From contig DBAX01000009.1 in NCBI GenBank assembly GCA_002291895.1, positions 3,854-27,853 of the forward strand: 24,000 nucleotides of DNA. The letters are read 5' to 3'. A program made the position numbers and the translations under genes. This DNA is from Cyanobacteria bacterium UBA999. Its GTDB lineage: Bacteria > Cyanobacteriota > Cyanobacteriia > Pseudanabaenales > Pseudanabaenaceae. Below are positions 7,222-22,982 of this stretch, in pieces. Numbering within the stretch: the first letter of the stretch is position 1; each line of letters opens with the position of its first letter. The notes beneath the pieces are model-generated. The model was not told where the DNA came from, ran no database searches, and saw nothing but the letters and a program-made list of their open reading frames with translations.

Positions 7222-7944
7222 ATGTTGCTACACCTCTCGACTTGGCCGGAAGTTGAAGCCTACCTCGGGCGAACGCGCGGCATCATTGTCCCCATGGGCT
7301 CCACGGAGCAGCACGGCCCCTCGGGGCTGATCGGCACCGATTTTATCTGTGCCGAAATCATTGCCCGGGGCATCGGTCAGGAGCGGGATGCCCTGATTGC
7401 CTCCACCCTGACCGTGGGGATGGCCGAGCACCACCTGGCCTTTCCTGGCACCATCAGCCTGCGACCCGCCACCCTGATGGCCGTGATTAAGGACTACGTC
7501 CACTCCCTGGCCCGCCACGGCTTCGAGCGGTTCTTTTTTGTCAACGGGCACGGCGGCAACATTGCCATTGGGCGGACAGCCTTTGCCGAAATCTATACCG
7601 AATTGCCCCAGGTGCGGTGCCGGCTGGCCAACTGGTGGATGAGCCATGCGGTGCAGAAATTGGTGCAGGAATTCTACGGCGATCGCGAAGGGTTGCACGC
7701 CACCCCCAGCGAGGTGGCCGTAACCATGTATGCCTACCCCCAAAGCATCAAAACCGTTGCCCTCGATCCGATCGTGCGGACGGATGGTCACATTTACAGT
7801 GCCGCCGATTTTCGCCAGCGCTATCCCGATGGGCGCATGGGTTCCGATCCTTCCCTAGCAACCATCGAGCAGGGGCAGGTGCTCTACGAAACCGCAGTGC
7901 GGGAGCTGGCGCGGCAGTATGACGATTTTCTGCGGGAAGATTGA
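7222..7944 (+). CDS. Creatininase-family amidohydrolase
   Basis: MLLHLSTWPEVEAYL...IIVPMGSTEQHGPSGLIGTD...FFFVNGHGGN are typical creatininase-family motifs. ATG 7222 is preferred over ATG 7189. Confidence 0.85.
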   Translation: MLLHLSTWPEVEAYLGRTRGIIVPMGSTEQHGPSGLIGTDFICAEIIARGIGQERDALIASTLTVGMAEHHLAFPGTISLRPATLMAVIKDYVHSLARHGFERFFFVNGHGGNIAIGRTAFAEIYTELPQVRCRLANWWMSHAVQKLVQEFYGDREGLHATPSEVAVTMYAYPQSIKTVALDPIVRTDGHIYSAADFRQRYPDGRMGSDPSLATIEQGQVLYETAVRELARQYDDFLRED

Positions 7945-7987
7945 CCCATCGGGCGTAGGATAAAGAAAACTACGCATTGGCACACCT

Positions 7988-10570
7988 ATGGCGGTGGTCG
8001 GGGACTGGCTGTCCCGCTTAAAACCCAAACGCCTGGCGATCGCCGAGGCCTGCTTGATCGGCCTGCTGGTGGGTCTGGCGGCGGTGCTTCTCAAAATTTT
8101 GGTCGGCGAAGTCGGCGGGCTGCGGTTGCGCGTGGCCCAACTGGTACCCTATGGTTTGGGGCTCCCCCTCTTTGGCATGGTAGCCGGGGCGATCGCCGGA
8201 TGGCTGACCATGACAACCCCCCAAACGGCGGGCAGCGGGATTCCGCCGATCAAGGCTGCCCTTGGTTACGTACCCCTCACCCTCAACGCTCAGAGCGCCC
8301 TCGTCAAGCTCTTGGCTGCCACAGTGGTGCTCGGCGGTGGCTTTGCCCTGGGGCGTCAGGGCCCAACGGTGTATATCGGCGCGGCCCTAGCAGCCCAACT
8401 CGGCCGGCTTTTGCCCACCTCGCCGGAATACCAGCGGCAGTTACTAGCGGCAGGGGCGGCCGCAGGGTTGGCGGCGGGCTTTAATGCTCCTTTGTCGGGG
8501 GTAATGTTTGTCGTTGAGGAACTACTCCACGATGTGTCGAGCATCACCCTGACCACCAGCATTCTGGCGTCCTTTGTCGGCGGGGTCGTGCCCCAAATCA
8601 TTGGCGGCGGGCCGGCGGAATTTGACAGCATCGCCCAACTGCCCGGGCTGGCGATTTCCTTCCGAGAAATTCCCTACTTTGTGCTTTTAGGAGTGCTCGC
8701 GGGTTTGGCCGGCGCCTGGCTGCAGCGCTCAATTCTGACCGGCATCCAATATTGGCGGCGCTGGTTGCCCCAGTCCCTGATGCTACGGATGGCGATCGCC
8801 GGTCTGCTGACAGGCTGGATGCTCAGTTTTCTGCCTGCCAACTTTTGGGATAGCGCCGGGCTGCAACAATTGCTGTCCCGCGGCCAGGGGGATTGGCTTT
8901 TTATCGTCCAAACCCTGTTTGCCCGCATGGCCTTGACGCTTTTAGCCTGCAGTGCCGAGGCCCCGGGCGGATTGTTTTTACCCAGCCTGATCCTGGGCTC
9001 TGCCATGGGTTCTCTAGTGGGTTTGGGCGAGCAGTACGTCACTGGTGGGGGGGGAACGGTTGAGGTTTATGCTCTCGCCGGCATGGGGGCCTTCTTCGGT
9101 GCGGTTTCCAAGGCTCCGATCACGGCAATTATGATCGTGTTTGAGACCACCAGAAGTTTCTCTTTGGTGCTGCCCCTGATGGTCGGCGGCATTACTGCCT
9201 ACCTGGTGGCGGAAAAATGCTCCCCTGGCTCTCTTTACAGTCGGCTGTTGGCAACCAACGGCATCCTCCTTCCCGATGGTCAAAGTGAGGTGCTCTGGCA
9301 AAAGTTGACGGCTGGACAAGTGATGCGATCGCCCGTAGAAACCCTATCCAGTTCCCTGACACTCGACGAGGCCAGCATTGCCTTCGCCAAGTCCCACCAT
9401 CGGGGATTTCCGGTCATGGAGGGGACGCGGCTGGTGGGCATCGTTACCGAGACCGATCTGGCCCATGCCCGGCGGGAGCAAATGTCTCCGGATACGGCCC
9501 TTACCCAAATCATGACCCCCAATCCCATCACCGTGGGCTGGCAGGAACCCCTAGCCCGGGTGCTGTACCTGCTGTCCCACTACCGGCTGTCGCGCTTGCC
9601 AGTGCTGGAGCACCAAAAACTGGTGGGGATCATTACCCGCAGTGACATCCTGCGGGTGGAAGCAGCACAGCTCGACCTCACCCAAACAACGGCGATCGCC
9701 ACGTCTTCCTATTGTGCCTATGCTACCCGCGCCCCTGCTACGGGCAACGGACGCCTCCTGCTCCTATTGCGGGAACAAAGCCAGGTGGATCTTTTTATGC
9801 GCTTTGCCCTGGCGATCGCCCAGGAACATCAGTGGGAGCTTGAGTGCCTCCACGTTATTACCATCACCCCCGACCGCGCCCCCGCCACCACCCCCGTCGA
9901 CCTAGAACCGGGTATTTCCCTGCTACAATCGGCCCAAAAGCTAGCCCAGGGCTGGGGTGTCCCGGTGCACACCCAAATCCGGGTGGCCCATCGGCTCAGC
10001 GACTGCAGCCTGGAGGTTGTCCAGGAGCGGACGATTCGCCTGATGCTGACCGGCTGGCATGACCCCAACCGTTCCGTGAACCGGGACTGGCAGGAATTGC
10101 TGCGCCTATCCCCCTGCGACCTGCTGATGATTCGACCCATCGCCCATAGGAGCACGGACATCATCCCCCCCCTCAACCGTTGGTTTATCCCCACCGCTGG
10201 GGGGCCCAACAGCACGTGTGCCCTCGATCTGCTGCCCGCCCTCATCGGCATCAGCCAGCAACCGGAAGTTGCCCTTTGCCAGATTCGCTCCCCCCACACC
10301 GACTACGGCAGTTTCAGCCTTGAGCGCAGTGTTCGGCTCCTGGAGCAGCGCCTACCTTGCCCTGTGGTTCCCCAATGCCTTGATGCCCCCAATGTGCCCC
10401 AGGCGATCGCCCAGGCTGCCATGGAGCAGCGGGCCCAGGTTATCCTGCTGGGGGCCAGCCGCGAAAGCTTTTTGCAGCAGGCGTGGCAGGGCAGCATTCC
10501 CGAAGCAGTTGCCCGTCAATGCCCTTGCACCGTTGTTGTTTTCCGCAGGGCCGAGCCTCCCCAGTCCTAG
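7988..10570 (+). CDS. ClC-family chloride channel/antiporter fused to a CBS pair and tandem USP domains
   Basis: 860 aa. ClC motifs are GSGIP (8231-8245), GRQGP (8351-8365), GFNAPLSGVMFVVEEL and GGLFLP. A CBS pair and two USP-like modules follow (listed separately). Confidence 0.9.
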   Translation: MAVVGDWLSRLKPKRLAIAEACLIGLLVGLAAVLLKILVGEVGGLRLRVAQLVPYGLGLPLFGMVAGAIAGWLTMTTPQTAGSGIPPIKAALGYVPLTLNAQSALVKLLAATVVLGGGFALGRQGPTVYIGAALAAQLGRLLPTSPEYQRQLLAAGAAAGLAAGFNAPLSGVMFVVEELLHDVSSITLTTSILASFVGGVVPQIIGGGPAEFDSIAQLPGLAISFREIPYFVLLGVLAGLAGAWLQRSILTGIQYWRRWLPQSLMLRMAIAGLLTGWMLSFLPANFWDSAGLQQLLSRGQGDWLFIVQTLFARMALTLLACSAEAPGGLFLPSLILGSAMGSLVGLGEQYVTGGGGTVEVYALAGMGAFFGAVSKAPITAIMIVFETTRSFSLVLPLMVGGITAYLVAEKCSPGSLYSRLLATNGILLPDGQSEVLWQKLTAGQVMRSPVETLSSSLTLDEASIAFAKSHHRGFPVMEGTRLVGIVTETDLAHARREQMSPDTALTQIMTPNPITVGWQEPLARVLYLLSHYRLSRLPVLEHQKLVGIITRSDILRVEAAQLDLTQTTAIATSSYCAYATRAPATGNGRLLLLLREQSQVDLFMRFALAIAQEHQWELECLHVITITPDRAPATTPVDLEPGISLLQSAQKLAQGWGVPVHTQIRVAHRLSDCSLEVVQERTIRLMLTGWHDPNRSVNRDWQELLRLSPCDLLMIRPIAHRSTDIIPPLNRWFIPTAGGPNSTCALDLLPALIGISQQPEVALCQIRSPHTDYGSFSLERSVRLLEQRLPCPVVPQCLDAPNVPQAIAQAAMEQRAQVILLGASRESFLQQAWQGSIPEAVARQCPCTVVVFRRAEPPQS
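9320..9661 (+). other. CBS-domain pair inside the ClC protein
   Basis: VMRSPVETLSSSLTLDEASIAFAKSHHRGFPVMEGTRLVGIVTETDL and IMTPNPITVGWQEPLARVLYLLSHYRLSRLPVLEHQKLVGIITRSDIL. Confidence 0.8.
9749..10552 (+). other. Two USP-like (universal stress protein) modules at the ClC C-terminus
   Basis: GRLLLLLREQSQVDLFMRFALAIAQEHQWELECLHVI... and RWFIPTAGGPNSTCALDLLPAL...AQVILLGASRESFLQQAWQGSIPEAVARQCPCTVVVFR match the USP beta-alpha pattern. Recognition is by eye only. Confidence 0.6.
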
Positions 10571-11568
10571 GTACAGGACTTGACCTTAGCCATCAGGGCC
10601 TGCAGGTGGGCTGGCAAGTCCGCCGTCGGGCACCATATCGGCGCTGGCAGGTGCCCTTCGGGGGCAGTTGTCGAAAACTGTAGCTGATTGGGGTTAAGCC
10701 ACACCCCCTCCCGCCGCCAACCAAGGCGATCGCCCAAGTGCTGCCACGTCCCTCCAGCCGGGGCCAGGAGTTCGGCGATGGGGTCGGAGGCCACTACCGT
10801 CGGCAGCAATTGCTTGAGCGCCCCAGAACTGGAAATACTCTCCACCTTGCCCGACACCACGAAGTCCTGGGCCTGCTTGATCTCCTTAATCACCACGGGA
10901 GCAAGGACGCGAAATGAATTGTTGGTGTTGACTACCGCGCCCTTAATATCCTTCATCAGCGCCTGCCAAGATCCAAGCCCTGCTCCCATGTCTTGCAGTT
11001 GCTGACAGAGGGCGGCCAAGTTTTGCCGGCTCGTGGGTGTATCGGGCAGCTTGAACAAGTTCAGCAGATCCCGCAACCGATGGGGAACCTCCTGCTGAAA
11101 GCGCGTCACTGTTTCGGCACTCAATGCGGGCGCAGCCCCTTGCCCCGCAAGGTGATCCATGTAGCTTTTAAGTTCCTCTAGGACGGGCTGGGACTCAACC
11201 ATGACCGCCGCCGCGGTTTGGGGCGACAATCCATCGGGGCCCTCGAGGTAGTCTAGAAGCTCTTTGATCTTGTCGCACCCCTTCAAAAACAGGGATTGCA
11301 ACTTTTGATCTACGGGAAAGTTGGGTTCATCCCGCAGAACCCGAAAATGATCCTCAAGGGCATGGGACAGTTGCCTTAGGCTGTCCAATCTCAGCATTGC
11401 GGCACCGCCCTTGATGGAGTGGGCAGCACGGAAAATGCTGTTAATTCCTTCGCCCTCGGGATCCTTCAGCGTTTCCGGGAGGTTGATCAGCCCGTCCTCC
11501 ATGGCCTGCAAGTTTTCCTTGCTTTCCTCAATAAAGTAGCCAATGATTTTTTTTTGCTTGTCGTCCAT
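10567..11568 (-). CDS. Stand-alone Hpt (histidine phosphotransfer) protein whose C-terminal tail resembles the second half of a GUN4 domain
   Basis: 333 aa. The N-terminal Hpt four-helix pattern has the phospho-His motif FRAAHSIKGGAAML (H50 codon at 11419-11421). The SD-like TAGGAA lies 7 nt upstream of ATG 11568. The tail GGTWQHLGDRLGWRREGVWLNPNQLQFSTTAPEGHLP is GUN4-like. Confidence 0.8.
   Translation of the reverse strand: MDDKQKKIIGYFIEESKENLQAMEDGLINLPETLKDPEGEGINSIFRAAHSIKGGAAMLRLDSLRQLSHALEDHFRVLRDEPNFPVDQKLQSLFLKGCDKIKELLDYLEGPDGLSPQTAAAVMVESQPVLEELKSYMDHLAGQGAAPALSAETVTRFQQEVPHRLRDLLNLFKLPDTPTSRQNLAALCQQLQDMGAGLGSWQALMKDIKGAVVNTNNSFRVLAPVVIKEIKQAQDFVVSGKVESISSSGALKQLLPTVVASDPIAELLAPAGGTWQHLGDRLGWRREGVWLNPNQLQFSTTAPEGHLPAPIWCPTADLPAHLQALMAKVKSCT
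10570..10791 (-). other. GUN4-like domain, C-terminal half
   Basis: W-x2-(L/F)-x-D-R-(L/V)-G-W ... P-x-G-H-L-P matches the conserved second half of GUN4 domains (compare plant GUN4 ...FFVKVEWMK...PLGHLP). Confidence 0.6.
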
Positions 11569-11582
11569 GGATGGTTCCTACC

Positions 11583-12131
11583 CTATTGCCCTACAACTTG
11601 TGACGAAATCCGCTGCTGCACGCTGAAGCCAAATCGCCCCTGGCTGTGCTTTACCCAAAGGCCATCCATTTGCTGGAGAATGGCGCAGGGTAGCTGCTCA
11701 AGGTCGGCGGCGGTGATGGCAGAATCCTTGGGCTTTTGCAGTGCTTGGCAGAGCAACCGCCACGTTTCGATGTTGGCTTCCCGCCACCGGCTGGCCCGCA
11801 GTAGGGCTTCGAGATTGGCAAAGGAAAGGCTCGGCAGCACGGCTGCTACTGGAGCAAAGCCCTCGGCCCGCCGCCGGAAGTGGAGGGTCATGGTCATTCC
11901 CCCGGTGGGAGCCTGATGCCCCACAAGCACCACTTCCCCAGACTCCGTAATCCGAACTGGCATAGAGATTTCCTCAAGGGCAAGTCCGGTACCGCCGTCG
12001 GGAATAATTTGGCTTACAAAGTGGGAGAGCCTCTGCAAGCTTAGCTTGACGGCTTGGGCGTCGATGACACGGGTATCAGTGCGGGTGCCATCGGCTGTCG
12101 TAACCTCAATTAAGATCTCTTCCTTGCTCAT
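11583..12131 (-). CDS. Two-domain ORF: Trypco2/CU044_2847-like N-terminal domain plus a truncated (N-terminal half) GUN4-like domain
   Basis: From ATG 12131 the protein reads MSKEEILIEVTTADG...LALEEISMPVRITESGEVVLVGHQAPTGGMTMTLHFRR. That beta-rich pattern recalls trypsin-co-occurring domain 2 (tentative). Then comes FANLEALLRASRWREANIETWRLL...LEQLPCAILQQMDGLWVKHSQGRFGFSVQQRI (GUN4 first half), followed by 7 aa and TAG. The start overlaps the upstream ClC gene by 26 nt. Confidence 0.65.
   Translation of the reverse strand: MSKEEILIEVTTADGTRTDTRVIDAQAVKLSLQRLSHFVSQIIPDGGTGLALEEISMPVRITESGEVVLVGHQAPTGGMTMTLHFRRRAEGFAPVAAVLPSLSFANLEALLRASRWREANIETWRLLCQALQKPKDSAITAADLEQLPCAILQQMDGLWVKHSQGRFGFSVQQRISSQVVGQ
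11607..11828 (-). other. GUN4-like domain, N-terminal half
   Basis: The W-x-EA(D/N)-x-ET ... PC-x2-L-x2-(I/M)D-x-LW-x3-S-x-GRFGFSVQ pattern is present. Confidence 0.7.
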
Positions 12132-13986
12132 GGGGCTTTTGCAGGTAGCGGTGGACGGGGACGGCGGGCGGTTCTGGCGGAATGTTGGCACTGATTGTAT
12201 CAGCAGTGGGTCTTTCTGGCTCTATGCTATCCAATTTCTGGTGGGCGGAGATTTTTTCGGCGATCGCCCTTTTGGTGAGGGCCGTAGCATGGGCCGTGGC
12301 GATCGCCTGACGCTCTACAACGCCAATTACCCGCTTGGTCTGGTGCCGATCTACTACGGGCAGTTGGCGCAAATCCCGGGCAGCCATGCGTTTCAGGGCG
12401 GCGGCTAGGGTTTCGTCGGCATAGGTAAACAGCACTTCGGGGGTGTAGGCATCGGCAACGATCAGGCTCTCGGGCGATCGCTGGGGAAAGGCAGATAGGG
12501 CACGCTTAATGTCTTGGGTGGTCAGGATTCCCGACAAATGATTGTTTTCGTCTAGGACGAGCACGCTGTGGTAGTAGCCACTGGTAACAAACTGCGCCGC
12601 CTGGAGCAGGGGCATCTGACTTTTGAGGCATAGCGGATTGAGGGTCATCACCTCGGCGATTTTGATATTGGAAAGCACATCAAGGTCGATCGCCGATTCC
12701 TGGGCAGCCACAGCCACGGCGGGAGCCTCCGGTACCGCAGGATAGACCTGTTCTACCAACCAAGAGCAAAAACCCACGCTGGCCATAAGGGGGAGCACAA
12801 TGCGATAGTCGCGGGTGAGTTCAAAGAGCAGGAGCACCGATGTCAGAGGAGCCCGCACCGTGCCCGCCAAGAGCGCTGCCATTCCCATCAGGGCATAGGC
12901 GGGTGGGGCGGAAATGACCACGGAGTCCGGTAAGACCAGGGGGAGCACTGTGGCGTAGAGGGCCCCGAGCACCGCTCCCAGGAAAATTGCGGGCGCGAAA
13001 ATTCCTCCCACAAAGCCCGATCCCAGGCACAGGGCAGTGAGCAGCACCTTACCGACCAGCAGTTGGGACAGCAGGGCGGGGGAGAAGGGAGCCCCCTGGA
13101 GAATGCCCTCCACAGTTTCGTAGCCTACGCCCAAAATTTCGGGCACCACGAGGGCCACCATCCCGGTAATCCACCCTCCTAGAAGCAGTTTCAGCACGGG
13201 AGGCACCGTACCGGTCAGGGCAGCTTTCATCCAAGTTAGGCAGCGGTTGAAGGCGATCGCCACGCCACTGCAGAGCACGCCCAAACCCACATAGAAAATG
13301 TACTCCCCGTAGCTACGGAGTTCGTACACTGGCAGGTGAAAGGCGGCTTCGGGCCCAAGCCCCACCTGGGCAATAATTGCAGACAGCACTGCCGCCAAAA
13401 CCACGGCACTGATATCGGTGTTGGTCTGCCCACCTCCGGTGCCGTAGACGCTGCGCAGGGAAACTTCAAGGGCAAAGAAAACCCCGGCAATTGGGGCATT
13501 GAAGCCGGCTGCCAGACCGCCTGCGGCGCCCGCGGCCATGAGCAGTCGGGTGCGCTCCGTCGAGAATTGCAACTGTTGCCCTAACCAGCGGGCCAGCTGA
13601 CTACCTAGTTCCACGCTGGGCCCTTCAGGCCCCAGGGAAGCCCCTGCCCCCAGGGAGACTACGGCCATCAGAGCCCGCAGCAGGGTCTGCCCCAGGTTGG
13701 TTTGCTCGGCGTTGGTCTGGGTCAGGCGATCACCCCACCCCCGCAGGAGGGCAACCAAGAGGGCCCCCAGCACCGGGATGACAGCGACAGAAATGGCCGC
13801 CACGGGCATCAGCCAGTGGAGCAGTTGCTCCCAGTAAAAACCCTCAGCCCAGGCAATACTTTTGCGAAACAGCGTCACGGCCGAGCCAGCCACCACACCT
13901 ACGGCGATCGCCGAGCCCAGCACCACCGTTGCCGCTGAGGGTTGGAAGCGGTTGAGTATGGCAACCAACAGACGGGAGGTGGTCAT
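12106..13986 (-). CDS. ClC-family chloride channel/antiporter with C-terminal CBS pair
   Basis: 626 aa. ClC motifs are GPEGP (13618-13632), GFNAPIAGVFFALEVS, GGIFAP and RAPLTSVLLLFELTRDY. The CBS pair is IAEVMTLNPLCL...LSGILTTQDI and ...LRQLPVVDRHQTKRVIGVVERQAI. ATG 13986 lies 20 nt after the upstream gene's stop. Confidence 0.9.
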   Translation of the reverse strand: MTTSRLLVAILNRFQPSAATVVLGSAIAVGVVAGSAVTLFRKSIAWAEGFYWEQLLHWLMPVAAISVAVIPVLGALLVALLRGWGDRLTQTNAEQTNLGQTLLRALMAVVSLGAGASLGPEGPSVELGSQLARWLGQQLQFSTERTRLLMAAGAAGGLAAGFNAPIAGVFFALEVSLRSVYGTGGGQTNTDISAVVLAAVLSAIIAQVGLGPEAAFHLPVYELRSYGEYIFYVGLGVLCSGVAIAFNRCLTWMKAALTGTVPPVLKLLLGGWITGMVALVVPEILGVGYETVEGILQGAPFSPALLSQLLVGKVLLTALCLGSGFVGGIFAPAIFLGAVLGALYATVLPLVLPDSVVISAPPAYALMGMAALLAGTVRAPLTSVLLLFELTRDYRIVLPLMASVGFCSWLVEQVYPAVPEAPAVAVAAQESAIDLDVLSNIKIAEVMTLNPLCLKSQMPLLQAAQFVTSGYYHSVLVLDENNHLSGILTTQDIKRALSAFPQRSPESLIVADAYTPEVLFTYADETLAAALKRMAARDLRQLPVVDRHQTKRVIGVVERQAIATAHATALTKRAIAEKISAHQKLDSIEPERPTADTISANIPPEPPAVPVHRYLQKPHEQGRDLN

Positions 13987-14006
13987 AACCCCAAGCCATC
14001 TCCTCG

Positions 14007-16367
14007 CTAAGGGGCTTCAGTGTCGTAGGCGTCATCATCCCCCCCGTAGGATCCATCGGCGATGGCACTCCTGGGGTCGGCATCCATAGAATCCCTTTGA
14101 TCGTTTTGATCGTTAGGTGGTTCGTTGGAATCGATGGACACTGCGTCAACCTCCTCCCCTTCGGCAGTAGGCACGGCCACGACGGCTTCCAGATCCACCT
14201 GCTGGCGGTAGTAGTCCACTCCACGCACCTGCACCTCGACGCGATCGCCCAAGCGAAACTGCCGCCCACTGCGACGACCCACCAGAGCCGAAGCCTGCCG
14301 CCCCTTGCCCCGTCCCCCGGTTTGGGGAAATTCGTACCAGTCATCCTTTAACGAGCTGACGTGCACCAGTCCCTCTACTAGCAGTTCTTCTAATTCCACA
14401 AAAAATCCGTAGGTCTGCACCGAGGTGATCATGCCGAAGAAGTGTTCCCCAGTGCGCGATCGCATGATTTCGGTTTTGCGCAACCCCTCCAAGTCTGCCA
14501 TGGCCCGAAAGTAGAGCGCCTCCTGCTGGGTGAGCCGGGGCAGCACTTCCGCTAGATCCTCCTGCAGTTGCTTTTCCCGCTCCGGTGGCAACACCCCCCA
14601 ACTGATCTGGCCGTGGCATTCCGAGCTACGCAGATTCACCGAGGCTTTGCTCCGCTGCGTTTTGCGATCGCGCCCCTCAGCGAACACCCAATGCCAAACC
14701 CGCTGCATCAACAGATCGCCGTAGCGATGCTGGGGCAAAATGCCATGGGTATAGGGCATCAAACCCAGACCGAAATGGGGCTCCGCTGTGCTGCGATACT
14801 CGCAGGATTTGAGCATCGCCATCAGCAGGTAGCGCAAAATATCCCGTCCCGCAGCCGACTCAAGCTGCTGCACCTGCCCCAGGAGTTTCTGCCAATGGTG
14901 GGGTTGGCAGGAGTCATCATCGCCCAGCTCTAGGGGCATGCCTAAACTTTCTAGCAGCCGGAGCCAGTCCTCCTGCTTGCCCGACTCGGGAGGAGCCTGG
15001 GAAACAAAGAGCCCCGGCAGACCCAATTGCTGCCAGTGCTGGGCGATCGCCCAATTGGCCAAGATCATGACATCCGCCACCGCACCGCAGATGGGCATGG
15101 ATGTTCCCGACACGGCCATCCCCCACACCCCCTCATCCCCCTCAAAGGGCAACGGCAAAGATAGATCGATGCTCGGCATCGGCCGTTGCTGCCGCAGGAG
15201 CATCCCAACTTCATGGAGGCGATGCAAAAAGTGCTGCACCTCATCCCGCTCGGTAGCCGCCAAGGACTCGGCAAAAATCTCCTGGGCCCGCCGTGGTTCC
15301 AAGTGCGATCGCAGCTGAATCACCGACGGCTGGAGTTCGTAGCTCAGCAGTTTTCCCGTCCCATCCAACTGCATCAGCACCGAGACCGTAAGAAACTCCG
15401 GCTGGTTAAACCCATTGAGTTCCGGCAGCATCGACAGCACCGTATCGCCCAGGAAAAACGACCGCAAGCGCCGTCGCGCCTCTCCATCGAGGGGAGCGTC
15501 GGGCACGACGTAGGTCGCCACATCGGGAATGTGCACTCCCAGATTCCAACCCAGCTCCGTCGGCTCTAGGGACATTGCCGCCCCCTGACCAATCCGCACC
15601 GTGCATTCCTTTTTGAGATCCAACCGGCTCTTGAGATCCGCCTTCCGCACCTTCGTGGGCAAACTGGCCGCCGCCGCCAACTCCTTAGCCCCAAATTGGC
15701 GGGGCAAATTGTACTTGCAGCACACCAAATCCAAGTCGTTGGTAGTTTCGGGACTGTCCCCCAAAACCTGCAAGATCTCAGCCATCGGTAAAGCACTTCC
15801 CAGGGGGTACCGGCTCACCCGCAGGTGTACCAACTTACCTGCCGCCACCGCCAGATCGGGCACGATGTCGTTAGGAACCAACTCCAGCTCAAACAGCAGA
15901 CGATCATCCAATGGGATCGCCCGGTAGCCCTCCTCCCGCGCCTCAACGCGAGACAGCAGCGTCGTGTTTGTGCGCTCCAAAATCAGCCGCACCTCCCCCT
16001 CGGGCGATCGCCGCCGGCCGCCATCCTTGAGCACCTTAACCAGCACCAAATCCCCATTCCAGGCCGTACTCAGACGACTGCTGGGAACGTAGACATCTTC
16101 CACCCCTTCCCCTTCCTGAATGGCAAAGCAAAAACCCTTACTGGAACAGCGTAGCCGCCCCTCAACCACGCCTTCTTCTGCGATCCGGCGATAGCGCCCC
16201 AAATCCTTGGTTAAAATTCCCAGCCGCTCCAGGGCATCCAGCGCCACCTGCATCCGGCGCACCTCCGCCGGCCGGTCTGAAATCCCCAAACGCTTTTCGA
16301 TCACCTTTGGGGCTACCAGCTTGTCGTCGCTAAAGCTATCCAAAAGTTGTGTGATCGAAAATTCCAT
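14007..16367 (-). CDS. RNase II/R-family (RNB + C-terminal S1 domain) protein with degenerate catalytic motifs
   Basis: The overall VacB/RNase R architecture is present. RNB-region landmarks are WNLGVHIPDVATYV, LSMLPE, DVMILANWAIA and HFGLGLMPYTH. The S1 domain is GEHFFGMITSVQTYGFFVELEELLVEGLVHVSSL. ATG 16367 (MEFSITQLL...) is preferred over the TTG at 16394. Confidence 0.85.
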   Translation of the reverse strand: MEFSITQLLDSFSDDKLVAPKVIEKRLGISDRPAEVRRMQVALDALERLGILTKDLGRYRRIAEEGVVEGRLRCSSKGFCFAIQEGEGVEDVYVPSSRLSTAWNGDLVLVKVLKDGGRRRSPEGEVRLILERTNTTLLSRVEAREEGYRAIPLDDRLLFELELVPNDIVPDLAVAAGKLVHLRVSRYPLGSALPMAEILQVLGDSPETTNDLDLVCCKYNLPRQFGAKELAAAASLPTKVRKADLKSRLDLKKECTVRIGQGAAMSLEPTELGWNLGVHIPDVATYVVPDAPLDGEARRRLRSFFLGDTVLSMLPELNGFNQPEFLTVSVLMQLDGTGKLLSYELQPSVIQLRSHLEPRRAQEIFAESLAATERDEVQHFLHRLHEVGMLLRQQRPMPSIDLSLPLPFEGDEGVWGMAVSGTSMPICGAVADVMILANWAIAQHWQQLGLPGLFVSQAPPESGKQEDWLRLLESLGMPLELGDDDSCQPHHWQKLLGQVQQLESAAGRDILRYLLMAMLKSCEYRSTAEPHFGLGLMPYTHGILPQHRYGDLLMQRVWHWVFAEGRDRKTQRSKASVNLRSSECHGQISWGVLPPEREKQLQEDLAEVLPRLTQQEALYFRAMADLEGLRKTEIMRSRTGEHFFGMITSVQTYGFFVELEELLVEGLVHVSSLKDDWYEFPQTGGRGKGRQASALVGRRSGRQFRLGDRVEVQVRGVDYYRQQVDLEAVVAVPTAEGEEVDAVSIDSNEPPNDQNDQRDSMDADPRSAIADGSYGGDDDAYDTEAP

Positions 16368-16868
16368 AACATTTAGTTCCCTGTAGTCATTCAATCTTAC
16401 CGCAAGCAGGAATCATTCAGCCCCTTGGCAGATGCGACACGGACAGGAAGCATCATCCGCACTGCAACCACAAAGCCGCTTGTATTGACCGATACATCAC
16501 CCCGCCCCGATTTCCCTCAGAAATTGCCATTAGCAGCAAAGTGTAGTACATATCTTTATAGTTTTCTTTTTGCCCCTGTCGCCATTGCTCCAGATTTCGC
16601 TCTTCTTGGTCACCTTCCCCGGCTGAATTGCATGGTGCTGTTTACGGTCCTCAATTAGCCTACTGGTGTGACGCAGCTAAGAAGCAGTTGAGAGAGGAGC
16701 CGTTCCTGAGGTGGCATGTTCCAGTGCGTCTCCATCAAATGTGGAGGTTTCTGGACATTCTTAGCGAAATTGCTAAGATAGTTCGGGGATTCGTGGGCAT
16801 CCTGAGCCAAAATGCAGGAGAGCAAGTACGAATTTTTGACGAATTGTTGTCAGTGTGAGGACTATTTC
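16368..16868. promoter_or_regulatory. Divergent intergenic/promoter region between the RNase II-like operon and the porin gene
   Basis: A 501-nt non-coding gap that is more AT-rich than its flanks and has no HIP1. Candidate plus-strand elements are TTGCCA (16524-16529), a 17-nt spacer, then TACATA (16547-16552), and also TTGACG (16836-16841). None is decisive. Confidence 0.4.
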
Positions 16869-18521
16869 ATGACTACGCCAATGTTCCGCTCCATCTATCG
16901 CGCAGGCTGCATGTCTGCACTGCTGTCGACCAGCTTGTTGGTTTCCACCTCTGCCAAAGCAGAAACCGAATCCAGCGTCATTCGCACCATGAGCGTTGAC
17001 CCCATTGCTCGCCCCATCACCACTGCCCAAAACAATGTCACTTCCGTCTCTCAGTTGAGTGATGTTCGCCCCACCGATTGGGCTTTCACCGCATTGCAAT
17101 CCTTGGTTGAGCGCTACGGTTGTATCGCTGGTTACCCTGACCGCACCTACCGCGGTCAACGGGCTATGACCCGCTTTGAGTTTGCCGCTGGTTTGAATGC
17201 TTGCTTAGACAAGATCAACGAAATCATCTCCGCTGGCTTGGCTGACAAGGTGAGCACTGAAGATTTGGCTGCTCTGCAACGCTTGCAAGAGGAATTCGCT
17301 GCTGAACTTGCTACCCTCCGTGGTCGCGTTGATGCCCTCGAAGCCCGCACCACCCGCCTGGAAGCCCAGCAATTCTCCACCACCACCAAGCTGAACGCTT
17401 CGGTGATTTTCGCGGTGTCTGGCGCTTCTGATGATCGCACCAGCTTCACTCCCAACGCCACGAACAATGGTGTTACTGCCAACACCACTGGCGATCGCAC
17501 CAACATTACTTTTTCTAACCGTACCCGCTTGAACTTTGACACCAGCTTTACCGGTCGTGATCGCTTGCGCACGCGGTTGGAAGCTGGCAATATTCCTAAC
17601 AATACCGCTGCCCTTGGCACTGGCAACTCTGGACGTTTGGGCTTTGAAGCAGATACGGGCAACAACTTTACCTTGGGTCGCTTGTTCTATCAGTTCCCTG
17701 TGGGCAATGCCGTGACCGTTTACATTGCTCCCCTCGGCAACACTGATGATGTGCTGTCCCGGATCAACGCTGTGGAAAGCGAAGAGCAAGCCACGGTTTC
17801 CCGCTTCGCCCGTTACAACCCCATCTTGCGTTTGTCCCAAGTTCAGCCCTTCGCTGTATTCGGTGCTCGGATTCAGCTTAGCCCCCAAGGTCGCTTGGAG
17901 TTGGCCTACGGCTCCGGTGATGCTGCTCAGCCCGGTGTAGATTCCCCTACTGGTGGTGGTTTGTTCGGTGACTCCCATGTGCTGGCTGCCCAGTTGGTGT
18001 GGGAACCCTCCCGTAATTTCACCCTTGGCATTAGCTACGCCAATGCTTACAACCCCCGCAACAGCCTGGCAACTGGCTTTGCTCAGGAAAACATTCGTAC
18101 CAGCAATGGTGTTGCTGTGGCTGATGTTCGTTCCAATACGGTTGCTGGCAACTTGGTTTGGGGTATTACTCCCAACATTGACTTGAGCGTGTGGGGTGCC
18201 TTTATCTTCGCTGAAGCTGGTAACCTGAATGCTTCTACCACGTTCACTTCTTGGATGGCAGCCCTTTCCTTTAAGGATCTGTTCTCCCGCAGCGACCTGG
18301 CTGGCATCATCTTTGGTCAGCCCCTCTTCCGTAGCTCCGTGAGTGGCAACGCCACCAACGCGGGTGAATCGACTCCTTACCACTTGGAGTTCTTCTACAA
18401 CTACCGCATTTCCCGGAACATCTCGATCACCCCGGCGGTGTTCTTTGTATTCAACCCCAATAGCTTGTCGGTTAACGGCACCACCACCGTCGGTGTGCTG
18501 CGTACCACTTTTACGTTCTAA
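16869..18521 (+). CDS. Outer-membrane porin, SLH domain + OprB-type beta-barrel (cyanobacterial Slr1841-like)
   Basis: It has a signal-peptide-like N-terminus ...CMSALLSTSLLVSTSAKAE. The SLH motif is SQLSDVRPTDWAFTALQSLVERYGCIAGYPDRTYRGQRAMTRFEFA. A coiled-coil linker follows, then alternating beta-strand sequence ending in the aromatic terminus TTFTF. An alternative start is ATG 16881. Confidence 0.85.
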   Translation: MTTPMFRSIYRAGCMSALLSTSLLVSTSAKAETESSVIRTMSVDPIARPITTAQNNVTSVSQLSDVRPTDWAFTALQSLVERYGCIAGYPDRTYRGQRAMTRFEFAAGLNACLDKINEIISAGLADKVSTEDLAALQRLQEEFAAELATLRGRVDALEARTTRLEAQQFSTTTKLNASVIFAVSGASDDRTSFTPNATNNGVTANTTGDRTNITFSNRTRLNFDTSFTGRDRLRTRLEAGNIPNNTAALGTGNSGRLGFEADTGNNFTLGRLFYQFPVGNAVTVYIAPLGNTDDVLSRINAVESEEQATVSRFARYNPILRLSQVQPFAVFGARIQLSPQGRLELAYGSGDAAQPGVDSPTGGGLFGDSHVLAAQLVWEPSRNFTLGISYANAYNPRNSLATGFAQENIRTSNGVAVADVRSNTVAGNLVWGITPNIDLSVWGAFIFAEAGNLNASTTFTSWMAALSFKDLFSRSDLAGIIFGQPLFRSSVSGNATNAGESTPYHLEFFYNYRISRNISITPAVFFVFNPNSLSVNGTTTVGVLRTTFTF

Positions 18522-18557
18522 GCCTACTTTTTTTCGGTAAAGCTTAATATTGACTTC

Positions 18558-18584
18558 GGGGACATCGCAAGATGTCCCTTTTTT
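18558..18584 (+). terminator. Rho-independent terminator of the porin gene
   Basis: An 8-bp stem GGGACATC/GATGTCCC (18559-18566 / 18571-18578) closes a GCAA tetraloop and is followed by T6 (18579-18584). Confidence 0.8.
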
Positions 18585-18623
18585 GCGCTTAGAATAAGAA
18601 ACACGCAAAAGGAAAGGTGGCGT

Positions 18624-19388
18624 ATGGACGTGATCCCAGCAATTGATATCCTCGATGGGCGGTGTGTGCGCCTGTATCAGGGAGATTATGAGCAGTCGGA
18701 GGTGTACGGGGAAGATCCCTTGGCGATCGCTCAGCACTGGTACTCCCAGGGAGCCAAGGTGCTCCATGTGGTGGATCTTGACGGTGCCCGCGCTGGTAAG
18801 CCCCAGAATTTGCAAATTATCGAGGCCATTGCCCGCTCGATCCCCATCCACGTACAGGTAGGCGGTGGTCTGCGCGATCGCAACAGCATTATGGCGGTTC
18901 TGGCCACTGGGGTTAGCCGGGTCATTTTGGGCACCATCGCCGTGGAGCAGCCCCAGTTGGTGGCGGATATTTGTGCTGAGTTTCCGGGGCAAATTTTGGT
19001 GGGGATCGATGCCCGCGATGGCAAGGTGGCGACCCGGGGTTGGCTTAATACGTCCGAGATCCAGGCTACGGAATTGGCTCAGAGGGTCACCGGGGTGGGT
19101 GTTTCTGGAATTGTGTATACGGATATTCAGCGGGATGGCACCTTAGAGGGGGCAAACATCGCAGCTTTGAAAACTATGCTGGCTACGGTGTCGGTGCCGG
19201 TCTATGCCTCGGGGGGCATTAGCTCGATTACGGATTTGCTGGAGCTGCTGACCCTAGAGACCCAGGGTCTAGCCGGAGCAATTTTGGGGCGATCGCTCTA
19301 TACGGGACACATTCACCTACCGGAGGCCTTTCGGGCCGTGGGGCAGGGGCGCTGGCAGAATGTCCCTACAGACACTGCCGTGGTCTAG
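18624..19388 (+). CDS. hisA: ProFAR isomerase (histidine biosynthesis)
   Basis: 254 aa. [22 protein letters not shown]..., VVDLDGA, GGGLR and ASGGIS are classic HisA motifs. An AAGGAAAGG RBS lies upstream of ATG 18624. Confidence 0.93.
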
Positions 19389-21806: not shown

Positions 21807-22982
21807 CTAGCGGATTGCCGCTACCATCTGGGCCCCGGCCGGGCTTTGGTTGCCGCTAAGCAAGTCTTCGATCGCCACTGCCAATTTCGCTGGGGAAACC
21901 GGATGGGGGAGGAGCAATGTACCGCCAGCCCACCGTACGCGCGTCTTTTCCAGCAAGCCATTCGACGACAGCAGAAAGAGTACCGGCGTTTCGCTAAAGC
22001 CGCGACTTTGGCGCAGCAACTGACAGAATTCATAATCTGCCGTCGTGAAGATAAACAGCGCCGGGCGACGCCGCAGCAATTGCAGCAGGTTCCGATCCGG
22101 TTGGGCCAAAACCATAACCTCATACCCGGCATCCCGCAGCAGCGTGGGCAAATAGTCATCCGTCCCCACCACGGCAATAAGGGGCAATTGCTGCACTTCC
22201 GGGAGCGTATTGGCCGCAAAGCGCACGGGCAGGGGCAAATCCTCCACGGGCTGCAGGTGCACTACCCCCCGCCCCACAAGGGGTAGCAGCAGGCGCATAG
22301 TATCGCAGGGCGATCGCTTTAGTCGCACCGCCACATCCCAAATTGTTAACTGCCCCTGGAGCAGCATCAGTAAATCCTCAAACATAGCCGTGGGCAGCAT
22401 AGAGCGGAGATGCTCCGGATGGCACAGCACCGGGGCCATATTGGGCTGAAACCGGGGCATACGCGCCCGCATCCGCCCTAAGCCACAATTTTGCCAGTCC
22501 GCGCGCATAGCGTAAGCCTGCTCCACAAGATTTTGGGGGCAGAGGAAGACCAAATGCTGCTGGAGTTGGCGATAGGGCAGCCAGACCATTTGGGTGCAGA
22601 AATTCTCGATAAAGTCAAAAAACACTTCGCGCACGATGTGGTTCACCACGGCCTTAGCCGCCGCCGCCGTAATCTTTCGTGACTCAAGCCATGTTGTAAG
22701 AACCTGAAGTTCCCAGGGGCAACGCACGTCCACGATCTCCATGGGCTGATGTACCGAGGGCGTTCCCGCCAAATGGGGAAGCACCTGCCGAACTGCCCGC
22801 TCCCAACGCCGCACGCGGTGACTGGTAGCCGTCGCATAAACCACGCGCCCCATGTGCAGATAAAGGTGCCACTGCTGCTGGGGGTCTTCGTTGTGCATAA
22901 GTATCAATTCGCCACAGGCCTTTTCTTGACTTAAGTCATTGAGGCGCTCGGCGATAGAGCTGATGATCGTGATTTCTGACAT
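21807..22982 (-). CDS. PatA-type protein: N-terminal PATAN (DUF4388) domain + degenerate receiver domain
   Basis: The N-terminus CGELILMHNEDPQQQWHLYLHMGRVVYATATSHRVRRWERAV fits the PATAN pattern. The C-terminus has a receiver-like fold (see the sub-feature). AGGAAA lies 4 nt upstream of ATG 22982. Confidence 0.75.
   Translation of the reverse strand: MSEITIISSIAERLNDLSQEKACGELILMHNEDPQQQWHLYLHMGRVVYATATSHRVRRWERAVRQVLPHLAGTPSVHQPMEIVDVRCPWELQVLTTWLESRKITAAAAKAVVNHIVREVFFDFIENFCTQMVWLPYRQLQQHLVFLCPQNLVEQAYAMRADWQNCGLGRMRARMPRFQPNMAPVLCHPEHLRSMLPTAMFEDLLMLLQGQLTIWDVAVRLKRSPCDTMRLLLPLVGRGVVHLQPVEDLPLPVRFAANTLPEVQQLPLIAVVGTDDYLPTLLRDAGYEVMVLAQPDRNLLQLLRRRPALFIFTTADYEFCQLLRQSRGFSETPVLFLLSSNGLLEKTRVRWAGGTLLLPHPVSPAKLAVAIEDLLSGNQSPAGAQMVAAIR
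21828..22175 (-). other. Receiver-like (pseudo-REC) domain lacking canonical phospho-acceptor residues
   Basis: LIAVVGTDDYLPTLLRDAGYEVMVLAQPDRNLLQLLRRRPALFIFTTADYEFCQLLR...TPVLFLLSSNG...LLLPHPVSP. The beta3 ...LLD-x-MP-x-DG segment is replaced by the shorter FIFTTAD. The conserved Lys of (T)KP is His. Confidence 0.6.

Follow-up and report, generated by a model that had tools for sequence, protein, structure and literature searches.

Organisation of the four-gene string

The stretch analysed here (the window) comprises 24,000 nucleotides (nt) of contig DBAX01000009.1 (positions 3,854 to 27,853, forward strand) from Cyanobacteria bacterium UBA999, a member of the Pseudanabaenaceae (GenBank assembly GCA_002291895.1), whose genome assembly amounts to 2.78 Mb in 145 contigs and whose closest named relative is 'Oscillatoriales cyanobacterium SM2_2_1'. 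Four closely spaced genes, zam, clc, pepco and hpt, follow one another on its minus strand. This string is real, conserved and more than a chance assembly, and it is best read as two older pairs lying side by side, zam-clc and pepco-hpt. The second pair carries a GUN4 domain that is split over two proteins, which is the most original element of the string.

The gene zam (14007-16367, minus strand) encodes, from its ATG, a putatively dead RNase R-type protein of the RNB family (786 amino acids) with the domains CSD1, CSD2, RNB and S1; an alternative TTG start lies at 16394 (open reading frame, ORF, 14007-16394), while the alignments of relatives begin at the ATG at 16367. It is followed by clc (12106-13986, minus strand; 626 amino acids), which encodes a ClC-type anion channel/transporter with two C-terminal CBS domains. 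The product of pepco (11583-12131, minus strand; 182 amino acids) combines a Pepco domain (residues ~19-87) with the N-terminal half of GUN4 (103-182), and besides its ATG at 12131 the gene has an alternative GTG start at 12191 (ORF 11583-12191). The last gene, hpt (10567-11568, minus strand; 333 amino acids), encodes a protein in which an Hpt domain (1-140) and another helical bundle (151-238) precede a disordered linker that leads to the C-terminal half of GUN4 (267-333). The Pfam matches of the four products were OB_RNB, CSD2, RNB and S1 for Zam, Voltage_CLC and two CBS for the clc product, Pepco and GUN4 for the third protein, and Hpt and GUN4 for the fourth.

The genes zam and clc are separated by 20 nt (13987-14006), clc and pepco overlap by 26 nt (12106-12131, with the ATG start), and pepco and hpt are 14 nt apart (11569-11582), a gap that contains an AGGA-type ribosome-binding site. 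The ORF list reproduces the four minus-strand frames and all three distances given in a first-pass annotation of the window, and it agrees with the statement that 16368-16868 is the only sizeable non-coding gap upstream of the string. This gap, the presumed promoter region of zam, is shared with a divergent SLH/OprB-type porin gene (16812-18521, plus strand; Pfam OprB and SLH; start at 16812 or 16869). No Rfam family and no tRNA was found in scans of the whole window, 16368-16868 included.

Conservation of gene order in Pseudanabaenaceae

The string was followed through 24 species genomes of the family from 12 genera, including Tumidithrix, Pseudanabaena, Thalassoporum PCC 7367 and Synechococcus sp. 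PCC 7502, in which the loci around the Hpt homologue were searched with every window protein. The order zam > clc > pepco > hpt on a single strand was found in 16 of the 24 genomes, and a chance juxtaposition, which the first-pass annotation had named as the alternative, is not borne out. Five genomes have the string without clc (zam > pepco > hpt); they belong to genus g2 (G002, G013, G021) and genus g11 (G011, G020). In G003, the two pairs are on different contigs, with about 5 nt between zam and clc; in Thalassoporum (G007), the pepco-hpt pair is 63 kb away from zam, and an orthologous clc was looked for and not found; in G016, a contig end falls just upstream of pepco.

The pepco and hpt genes are neighbours in all 24 genomes, and clc stands immediately 3' of zam in every family genome where a clc orthologue was found (17/17, including G003). 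In G003 and G007 the pepco-hpt pair is solitary behind a divergent gene, so that expression of its own is possible. Over the 16 genomes with the complete string, the median distance from zam to clc is 105 nt (range 1-462) and that from clc to pepco 29 nt (range -86 to 490); pepco and hpt lie 4-248 nt apart in relatives.

The string genes share 35-60% protein identity with those of the relatives. Downstream of hpt, none of the window genes recurs near the string in any non-congeneric relative, all window proteins having been searched; upstream, only the porin and at times a hisA/hisF-type gene recur. Of the 24 family loci examined, 14 have the porin next to zam, and so do further Pseudanabaena (g8) loci (tblastn matches beside zam in L031-L034, L040-L044, L049, L089 and L090, and also in L052-L055, L057 and L058). 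Since the order is kept at low identity amid reshuffled flanks, the block is a synteny island.

A GUN4 domain split over two proteins

GUN4 (PF05419) is complete in neither chain: the pepco product matches profile positions 7-85 (2e-20) and the hpt product positions 81-124. The tail of the former aligns to residues 99-174 of T. elongatus Gun4 (1z3x_A; 91-166 of 1y6i_A) and that of the latter to residues 177-217 (170-209 of 1y6i_A); the halves abut at residues 174/177 of 1z3x_A, and the break therefore falls within a window of 2-3 residues. In every family genome, the Pepco protein stops ~10 residues past a G(R/K)FGFSVQ motif, and the W..FGDR.GWR...AP.GHLPAP.WL half forms the end of the Hpt protein. 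Compared with Gun4 of Synechocystis (1Y6I) and T. elongatus (1Z3X), a tetrapyrrole-binding cofactor of Mg-chelatase, the two tails jointly cover the core and carry the family motifs, but the domain is spread over two polypeptides and lacks the N-terminal helical domain of Gun4, and any porphyrin binding is putative.

Complex prediction for the Pepco and Hpt proteins gave 0.76 (median of three runs) against 0.15 for the best control. Among 80 solved complexes 58 attained that mark, as did 2 among 110 mismatched pairs. The interface in the prediction consists of the two GUN4 halves (Hpt protein 274-333 with Pepco protein 114-180), and the result supports their complementation. By itself, the GUN4 C-terminal tail was modelled by AlphaFold2 (AF2) with a predicted local distance difference test (pLDDT) value of just 62-73. 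In the N-terminal part of the pepco product, the window copy scores ~22.3-22.5 bits with the Pepco profile (PF24393; cut-off 27), and 22 of 25 orthologues match it, counted at E up to 0.01, with a best value of 1.2e-15.

A profile search of 1.84 billion representatives retrieved unsplit proteins of 273-302 amino acids with Pepco and GUN4 (profile positions 2-125), whereas a word-indexed homologue search with the Pepco protein yielded 10 matches only. The unsplit proteins of other cyanobacteria (P0219, P0235, P0242, P0247) resemble the window pair in having Pepco followed by GUN4, in standing alone and in having no protease as neighbour; they differ in that GUN4 is whole in one chain and no Hpt gene lies next to it. 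The four gene neighbourhoods contained housekeeping genes only, with neither a protease nor an Hpt gene. A programmed frameshift or readthrough joining pepco and hpt was considered and rejected, because the gap (14 nt here, 4-248 nt in relatives) varies with no constant frame relation.

The best reading of pepco-hpt is that of a new pair with one domain split between its proteins, through which Pepco-GUN4 is linked to a P1-type Hpt. As such it would be a clean natural case of a domain split in trans through insertion of another gene. A CheA-P1 phosphotransfer module is joined in it to half of a GUN4 sensor and to Pepco, a domain known elsewhere from toxin effectors. Should the two halves re-associate as predicted, the pair would show how chemotaxis-like phosphorelays gain new inputs, and it would represent a non-defence use of Pepco.

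The Hpt module and its candidate kinase

The Hpt domain of the hpt product (4e-16) has an HS(I/V)KGG motif, and H50, K53, H69 and E72 (Lys, His and Glu at +3, +19 and +22) are invariant across 25 Hpt orthologues. This spacing corresponds to the P1 network of E. coli CheA (His48/Lys51/His67/Glu70). The AF2 model of the hpt product (mean pLDDT 83.9) shows two confident bundles, a disordered linker and a low-confidence tail; against the P1 domains 1i5n, 3kyi and 1tqg it gave target-normalised template modelling (TM) scores of 0.75-0.82 with weak Foldseek E-values (0.006-0.07), and the P1 structures that it resembles include that of R. sphaeroides CheA3. According to Pfam, the protein carries no CheA dimerisation, HATPase or CheW-like domain, only Hpt and the GUN4 half.

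The first-pass annotation had noted that no histidine kinase is encoded near the Hpt gene, with which our results agree; the candidate kinase sits elsewhere. Residues 3-263 of the Hpt protein share 37% identity with the N-terminus of a 1466-amino-acid hybrid CheA, which is encoded on another contig of the genome (G000:C140) within a CheW-MCP(TPR/HAMP)-CheA cluster and has an N-terminal Hpt and a dimerisation-HATPase-CheW-REC body. The same residues are 41-46% identical to CheAs of HmpE/PilL size and to stand-alone Hpt proteins of other families. At least three further CheA-like genes are present in the genome.

Previous work on Synechocystis described Hik36/PilL-N (slr0073) as a free-standing Hpt, the detached half of a CheA, whose partners are Hik43 and Rre6; it acts with PilG and a CheA body that is encoded separately (PMC7656254). 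The window protein is likewise a free-standing CheA-P1-type Hpt encoded apart from its candidate kinase, and Hik36/PilL-N belongs to the pilus-motility chemotaxis-like systems of cyanobacteria. Unlike the Synechocystis case, the hybrid CheA of the window genome is intact and has an N-terminal Hpt of its own. The window Hpt is therefore an extra paralogue, and its C-terminus is half a GUN4 domain.

Stand-alone P1-type Hpt proteins of ~300-320 amino acids with the same two helical bundles are widespread (L085-L088, in four other families). They end in a different short conserved C-terminal helix and have no GUN4 half, and no CheW, MCP or CheA gene adjoins them at L085-L088. The Hpt-GUN4C protein of Pseudanabaenaceae may be an orthologue of this stand-alone family with a swapped tail.

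Zam, a described pseudo-nuclease

According to a previous study, Zam forms a cyanobacteria-wide clade of RNB proteins with a degenerate active site, and C73/C79 are redox-active in the protein of Synechococcus PCC 7002; loss of zam alters phycocyanin synthesis, photosystem ratio and sensitivity to acetazolamide (Thomas et al. 2022, PMC9145284). The degenerate RNase II/R of the window is this Zam, an already described pseudo-nuclease, and nothing about it is new here, judging by its sequence. OB_RNB, CSD2, RNB and S1 each score above cut-off in an architecture of CSD1-CSD2-RNB-S1, which is that of the published Zam (Synechocystis sll1910; Synechococcus PCC 7002), and the protein lies far under the RNase R equivalog cut-off (Pfam, NCBIfam). 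All four Asp residues of motif I are gone in a pairwise alignment to B. subtilis RNase R (chain 8cdu_C), where the window reads RIGQGAAMSLEP instead of TIDG.DAKDLDDA (15561-15596, minus strand), and the RNB profile match begins only at position 23; the published Zam has lost the motif-I acidic residues as well. The CSD1 domain holds a cysteine pair, C74-x5-C80 counted from the ATG (16128-16148, minus strand, read from sequence), at nearly the same position and with the same spacing as the redox-active C73/C79 of PCC 7002. As in the published case, a separate canonical RNB paralogue is encoded in the genome (G000:C41; full profile covered, 270 bits). The earlier description of the window protein as a candidate RNA-binding pseudo-nuclease therefore stands as regards the lost motif-I residues, though not as regards a new candidate.

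Orthologues of Zam were found in 113 genomes of a class sample of 121 cyanobacterial genomes. What distinguishes the zam of the window and of Pseudanabaenaceae from the published account is the ClC gene next to it; the paper is silent on gene neighbourhood, its text containing no occurrence of 'operon', 'neighbo', 'synten' or 'chloride'. For Zam, the recurrent clc partner in two families, together with the family-wide neighbour module, provides testable leads, among them the old observation that loss of zam changes the entry of the anionic inhibitor acetazolamide.

The ClC/CBS protein and the zam-clc pair

The clc product matches Voltage_CLC at 1.8e-77 (261 bits) and CBS at 5e-18. Its Voltage_CLC fold is shared with ClC-ec1-type CLC exchangers and CBS-containing CLCs, as are the gating Glu in GPEGP (residues 119-123, invariant among orthologues), the GxFxP motif, the equivalent of Tyr445 and two CBS domains. 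It differs from ClC-ec1-type exchangers in that the GSGIP selectivity loop, with its Ser, is deleted, a site that is variable in the Pseudanabaenaceae relatives, and in that Val occupies the position of the internal proton-transfer Glu203. The whole cyanobacterial ClC/CBS orthologous group (loci L107-L128) lacks the canonical GSGIP loop and has Val at the Glu203 position throughout; many families have G-P-G-I-S at the loop site, and the loop is deleted in the copy of family f26.

Orthologues of clc occur in 61 of the 121 class genomes. Adjacency of zam and clc in that sample is confined to Pseudanabaenaceae and family f26 (G071, which is Leptolyngbya sp. FACHB-261, and G049); in the other families with both genes, zam and clc are on separate contigs or 40 kb to megabases apart. 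The flanks in f26 differ, with folE-phoU upstream of zam-clc and unrelated genes downstream. The f26 string, folE - phoU - zam - clc, lies at L084:2268-8204 and L083:12012-18001, and phoU overlaps zam by 4 nt in one of the two genomes and is 2 nt apart from it in the other. In the Zam tree, f26 forms the basal branch of the non-Pseudanabaenaceae clade. The clc-less genera of Pseudanabaenaceae, g2 and g11, are not sisters; as g11 clusters with g5, which has clc, the gene dropped out of the string on two or more occasions.

A second, larger ClC paralogue (window 7988-10570, plus strand; 860 amino acids) with ClC, two CBS and USP domains converges on hpt. The stop codons of the two genes overlap in CTAG (10567-10570), which leaves zero intergenic space. 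This paralogue is syntenic only in the congeneric genome G001.

Transcription

Judging by their spacing, the four genes are probably co-transcribed in the compact genome of the window, whereas the family-level evidence points to differently expressed units over one uniform operon. Contigs of four public runs were placed on the locus of a Pseudanabaena relative (L040; zam 5438-~7773, clc 7879-9891, pepco 9949-10539, hpt 10689-11843). The depths are crude and the strains mixed: in the metatranscriptome runs, zam, clc and pepco-hpt had depths of ~66, ~5 and ~13.5 (X1), ~6, ~0.6 and ~0.7 (X2), and ~4.5, 0 and ~0.1 (X3), while all three had depths of 8-10 in the DNA-like run X4. A hairpin with a 14-bp stem (L040:7791-7824) lies directly past the zam stop, and contigs of X2 and X3 end at 7863/7864, 40 nt beyond the hairpin and 15 nt ahead of the clc start. 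Contigs of X1 span the clc 3' end and pepco (9433-10226) as well as pepco and hpt (10481-10949), although one contig over two genes is no proof of a single transcript.

Because RNA depth is unequal in this relative, a single uniformly expressed operon is not supported there. The single transcription unit proposed in the first-pass annotation thus stays plausible, from spacing, for the compact genome of the window; in the Pseudanabaena relative, non-uniform depth tells against it, and the hairpin past zam is an internal signal of the kind named there as refuting. In the window itself, a promoter and terminator scan of 10000-17200 gave counts no higher than in shuffles, which speaks neither for nor against internal signals, and a consensus scan of 16368-16868 found one promoter-like site, on the plus strand only.

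Interpretation of the string

The explanation that we favour, and hold to be somewhat more probable than not, is that the string is a vertically inherited, Pseudanabaenaceae-specific cluster of two older head-to-tail modules, the second of which would act through a split-GUN4 heteromer. In the first module, zam would encode an RNase R homologue that is redox-regulated and devoid of nuclease activity, and the gene next to it a ClC/CBS anion channel/transporter with a degenerate selectivity loop. The second module would have arisen when an ancestral stand-alone Pepco-GUN4 gene was cut within a GUN4 loop by a free-standing CheA-P1-type Hpt gene, which would leave the N-terminal half of GUN4 at the end of the Pepco protein and the C-terminal half at the end of the Hpt protein. 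Because both halves are conserved and predicted to re-associate, the two products most likely form a heteromer tying a phosphorylatable P1 module to a Pepco-GUN4 body; this body is possibly oligomeric, since Pepco forms 9-10-mer barrels. From the paralogy to the hybrid CheA and the precedent of Hik36/PilL-N, we infer that P1 would be phosphorylated in trans by an HmpE/PilL-type hybrid CheA encoded elsewhere, and the rebuilt GUN4 pocket may put a side branch of a pilus-motility/phototaxis phosphorelay under a tetrapyrrole-like ligand. No evidence unites the four proteins in one mechanism, and adjacency is the only link found between the modules.

Several observations weigh against this explanation. 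The Pepco match of the window copy is below the cut-off (22.3 against 27 bits), and the predictor may have scored the complex highly only because it had learned the GUN4 fold. Pair binding, phosphotransfer and ligand binding are predicted properties, and the assignment of the kinase is suggested by paralogy in a genome with at least three other CheA-like genes. The retention of zam-clc in one family and one other could be inherited order and not selected linkage, and in the X1 data of the Pseudanabaena relative the depth of zam was ~13-fold that of clc and ~5-fold that of pepco-hpt. A three-chain prediction with the CBS region of the ClC protein (425-626) and the pair gave 0.00, which is uninformative and neither supports nor contradicts a contact.

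That, apart from pepco-hpt, the string is inherited gene order only, with functionally unrelated neighbours still together in Pseudanabaenaceae, is an unlikely alternative, yet it accounts for several of the results. In all other sampled families with both genes, zam and clc are far apart, and expression is unequal; deletion of clc automatically leaves zam beside pepco, so the clc-less strings need no selection; and the divergent porin, sometimes also a hisA/hisF-type gene, is syntenic too, so that the conserved block would be wider than four genes. Against it, synteny ends right after hpt in non-congeneric relatives, yet the four-gene order persists at 45-60% identity; zam-clc recurs in a second family with both flanks different; and zam and clc lie ~5 nt apart in G003, where the pair is elsewhere. 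If the four genes were merely neighbours, the finding would amount to an annotation-level note.

A single functional system of all four proteins in one operon seems to us more doubtful still. It might take the form of a tetrapyrrole/redox sensor (split GUN4 and Hpt) controlling both the regulation of pigment synthesis by Zam at the RNA level and the anion flux through ClC. Shared strand and minimal spacing in the window, an order kept in 16 of 24 family genomes, a median clc-pepco gap of only 29 nt over 16 genomes and the metatranscriptome contigs that bridge the clc 3' end with pepco and pepco with hpt are what such a system would lead one to expect, and there is a thematic link in that zam loss alters phycocyanin and photosystem ratios (PMC9145284) while GUN4 is a tetrapyrrole-binding domain (PMC7159879). 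Each junction, however, can be lost: clc is gone in two genera that the Zam tree does not place as sisters, the pairs occupy separate loci in G003, and 63 kb separate zam from the pair in G007. Moreover, the split pair is confined to one family, although zam occurs throughout cyanobacteria. RNA depth in the Pseudanabaena relative stands at ~13:1:3 (zam : clc : pair), and zam is followed there by a hairpin; the prediction of a contact between the ClC CBS region and the pair (0.00) is uninformative here. Improbable to a greater degree, in our view, is a conjecture in which the GUN4 pocket forms only on assembly of Pepco-GUN4N with Hpt-GUN4C, assembly or tetrapyrrole occupancy gates P1 phosphotransfer, so that the state of pigment precursors would act directly on an HmpE/PilL motility/phototaxis relay, and the module lies beside zam-clc as Zam, through pigment and photosystem balance, and ClC answer the same physiological signal. 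If true, a pocket-gated relay would be an undescribed way to build a two-component branch, via a domain split in trans.

We regard as very improbable the proposal that pepco-hpt is an anti-phage or conflict module, with Pepco as a latent pore-forming toxin and GUN4 and Hpt as its sensor or lock. Members of the Pepco family are pre-assembled 9-10-mer beta-barrel toxins that are activated and released by C-terminal cleavage (bioRxiv 10.1101/2025.11.14.688446), conflict systems of cyanobacteria include GUN4 domains (PMC7159879), and other GUN4 proteins from the profile search bear TIR or PLD domains. The window gene shares with Pepco (Trypco) effectors paired with proteases, such as SsPepco-SsAvs4 (bioRxiv 10.1101/2025.11.14.688446), an N-terminal region of ~90 residues that, in 22 of 25 orthologues, is matched by the profile of Pepco; in contrast to them, it has no associated protease, a GUN4 half stands where they have a short charged tail, and it is a vertically inherited single-copy gene whose own copy is below the family cut-off. 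A protease partner was found neither among the window ORFs scanned nor next to the pair in relatives, whose loci showed string genes only, and the unsplit Pepco-GUN4 genes lie among housekeeping genes with no protease. Unlike mobile defence islands, the pair occurs in 24 of 24 family genomes as one copy whose place on the chromosome is fixed, and it contains the sole Pepco-like gene of the genome, in which no second one was found.

Other GUN4 proteins and features of the window

A 466-amino-acid GUN4 protein of the genome was considered as the protease of Pepco and rejected, as it is a Ser/Thr kinase. An OmpR-type response regulator gene lies directly before this Ser/Thr kinase-GUN4 fusion (L129:1193-3336; G000:C43), and proteins of ~466 amino acids with a C-terminal GUN4 recur across Pseudanabaenaceae. 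In the proteins P0280 and P0276, a full GUN4 is joined to TIR or PLD-like domains, as in conflict systems; both were matched via the GUN4 half of the profile only.

The HIP1 octamer (GCGATCGC) occurs 56 times in the 24 kb of the window against 0.4 expected. A HIP1-free stretch of 1.5 kb (10733-12260) covers pepco-hpt, and similar gaps of 1.2-1.5 kb are found at 16011-17491 and 17498-18723. A foreign origin of pepco-hpt was considered on this ground and rejected: since the gap is matched by similar ones in the window it is no sign of foreign origin, and family-wide vertical inheritance agrees with this.

A protein encoded at 21807-22982 (minus strand) contains the receiver-like domain that had been called degenerate in the first-pass annotation, which is consistent with its lack of a Response_reg match at E<0.001. 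Its sole match was DUF4388, a PATAN-type N-terminal domain.

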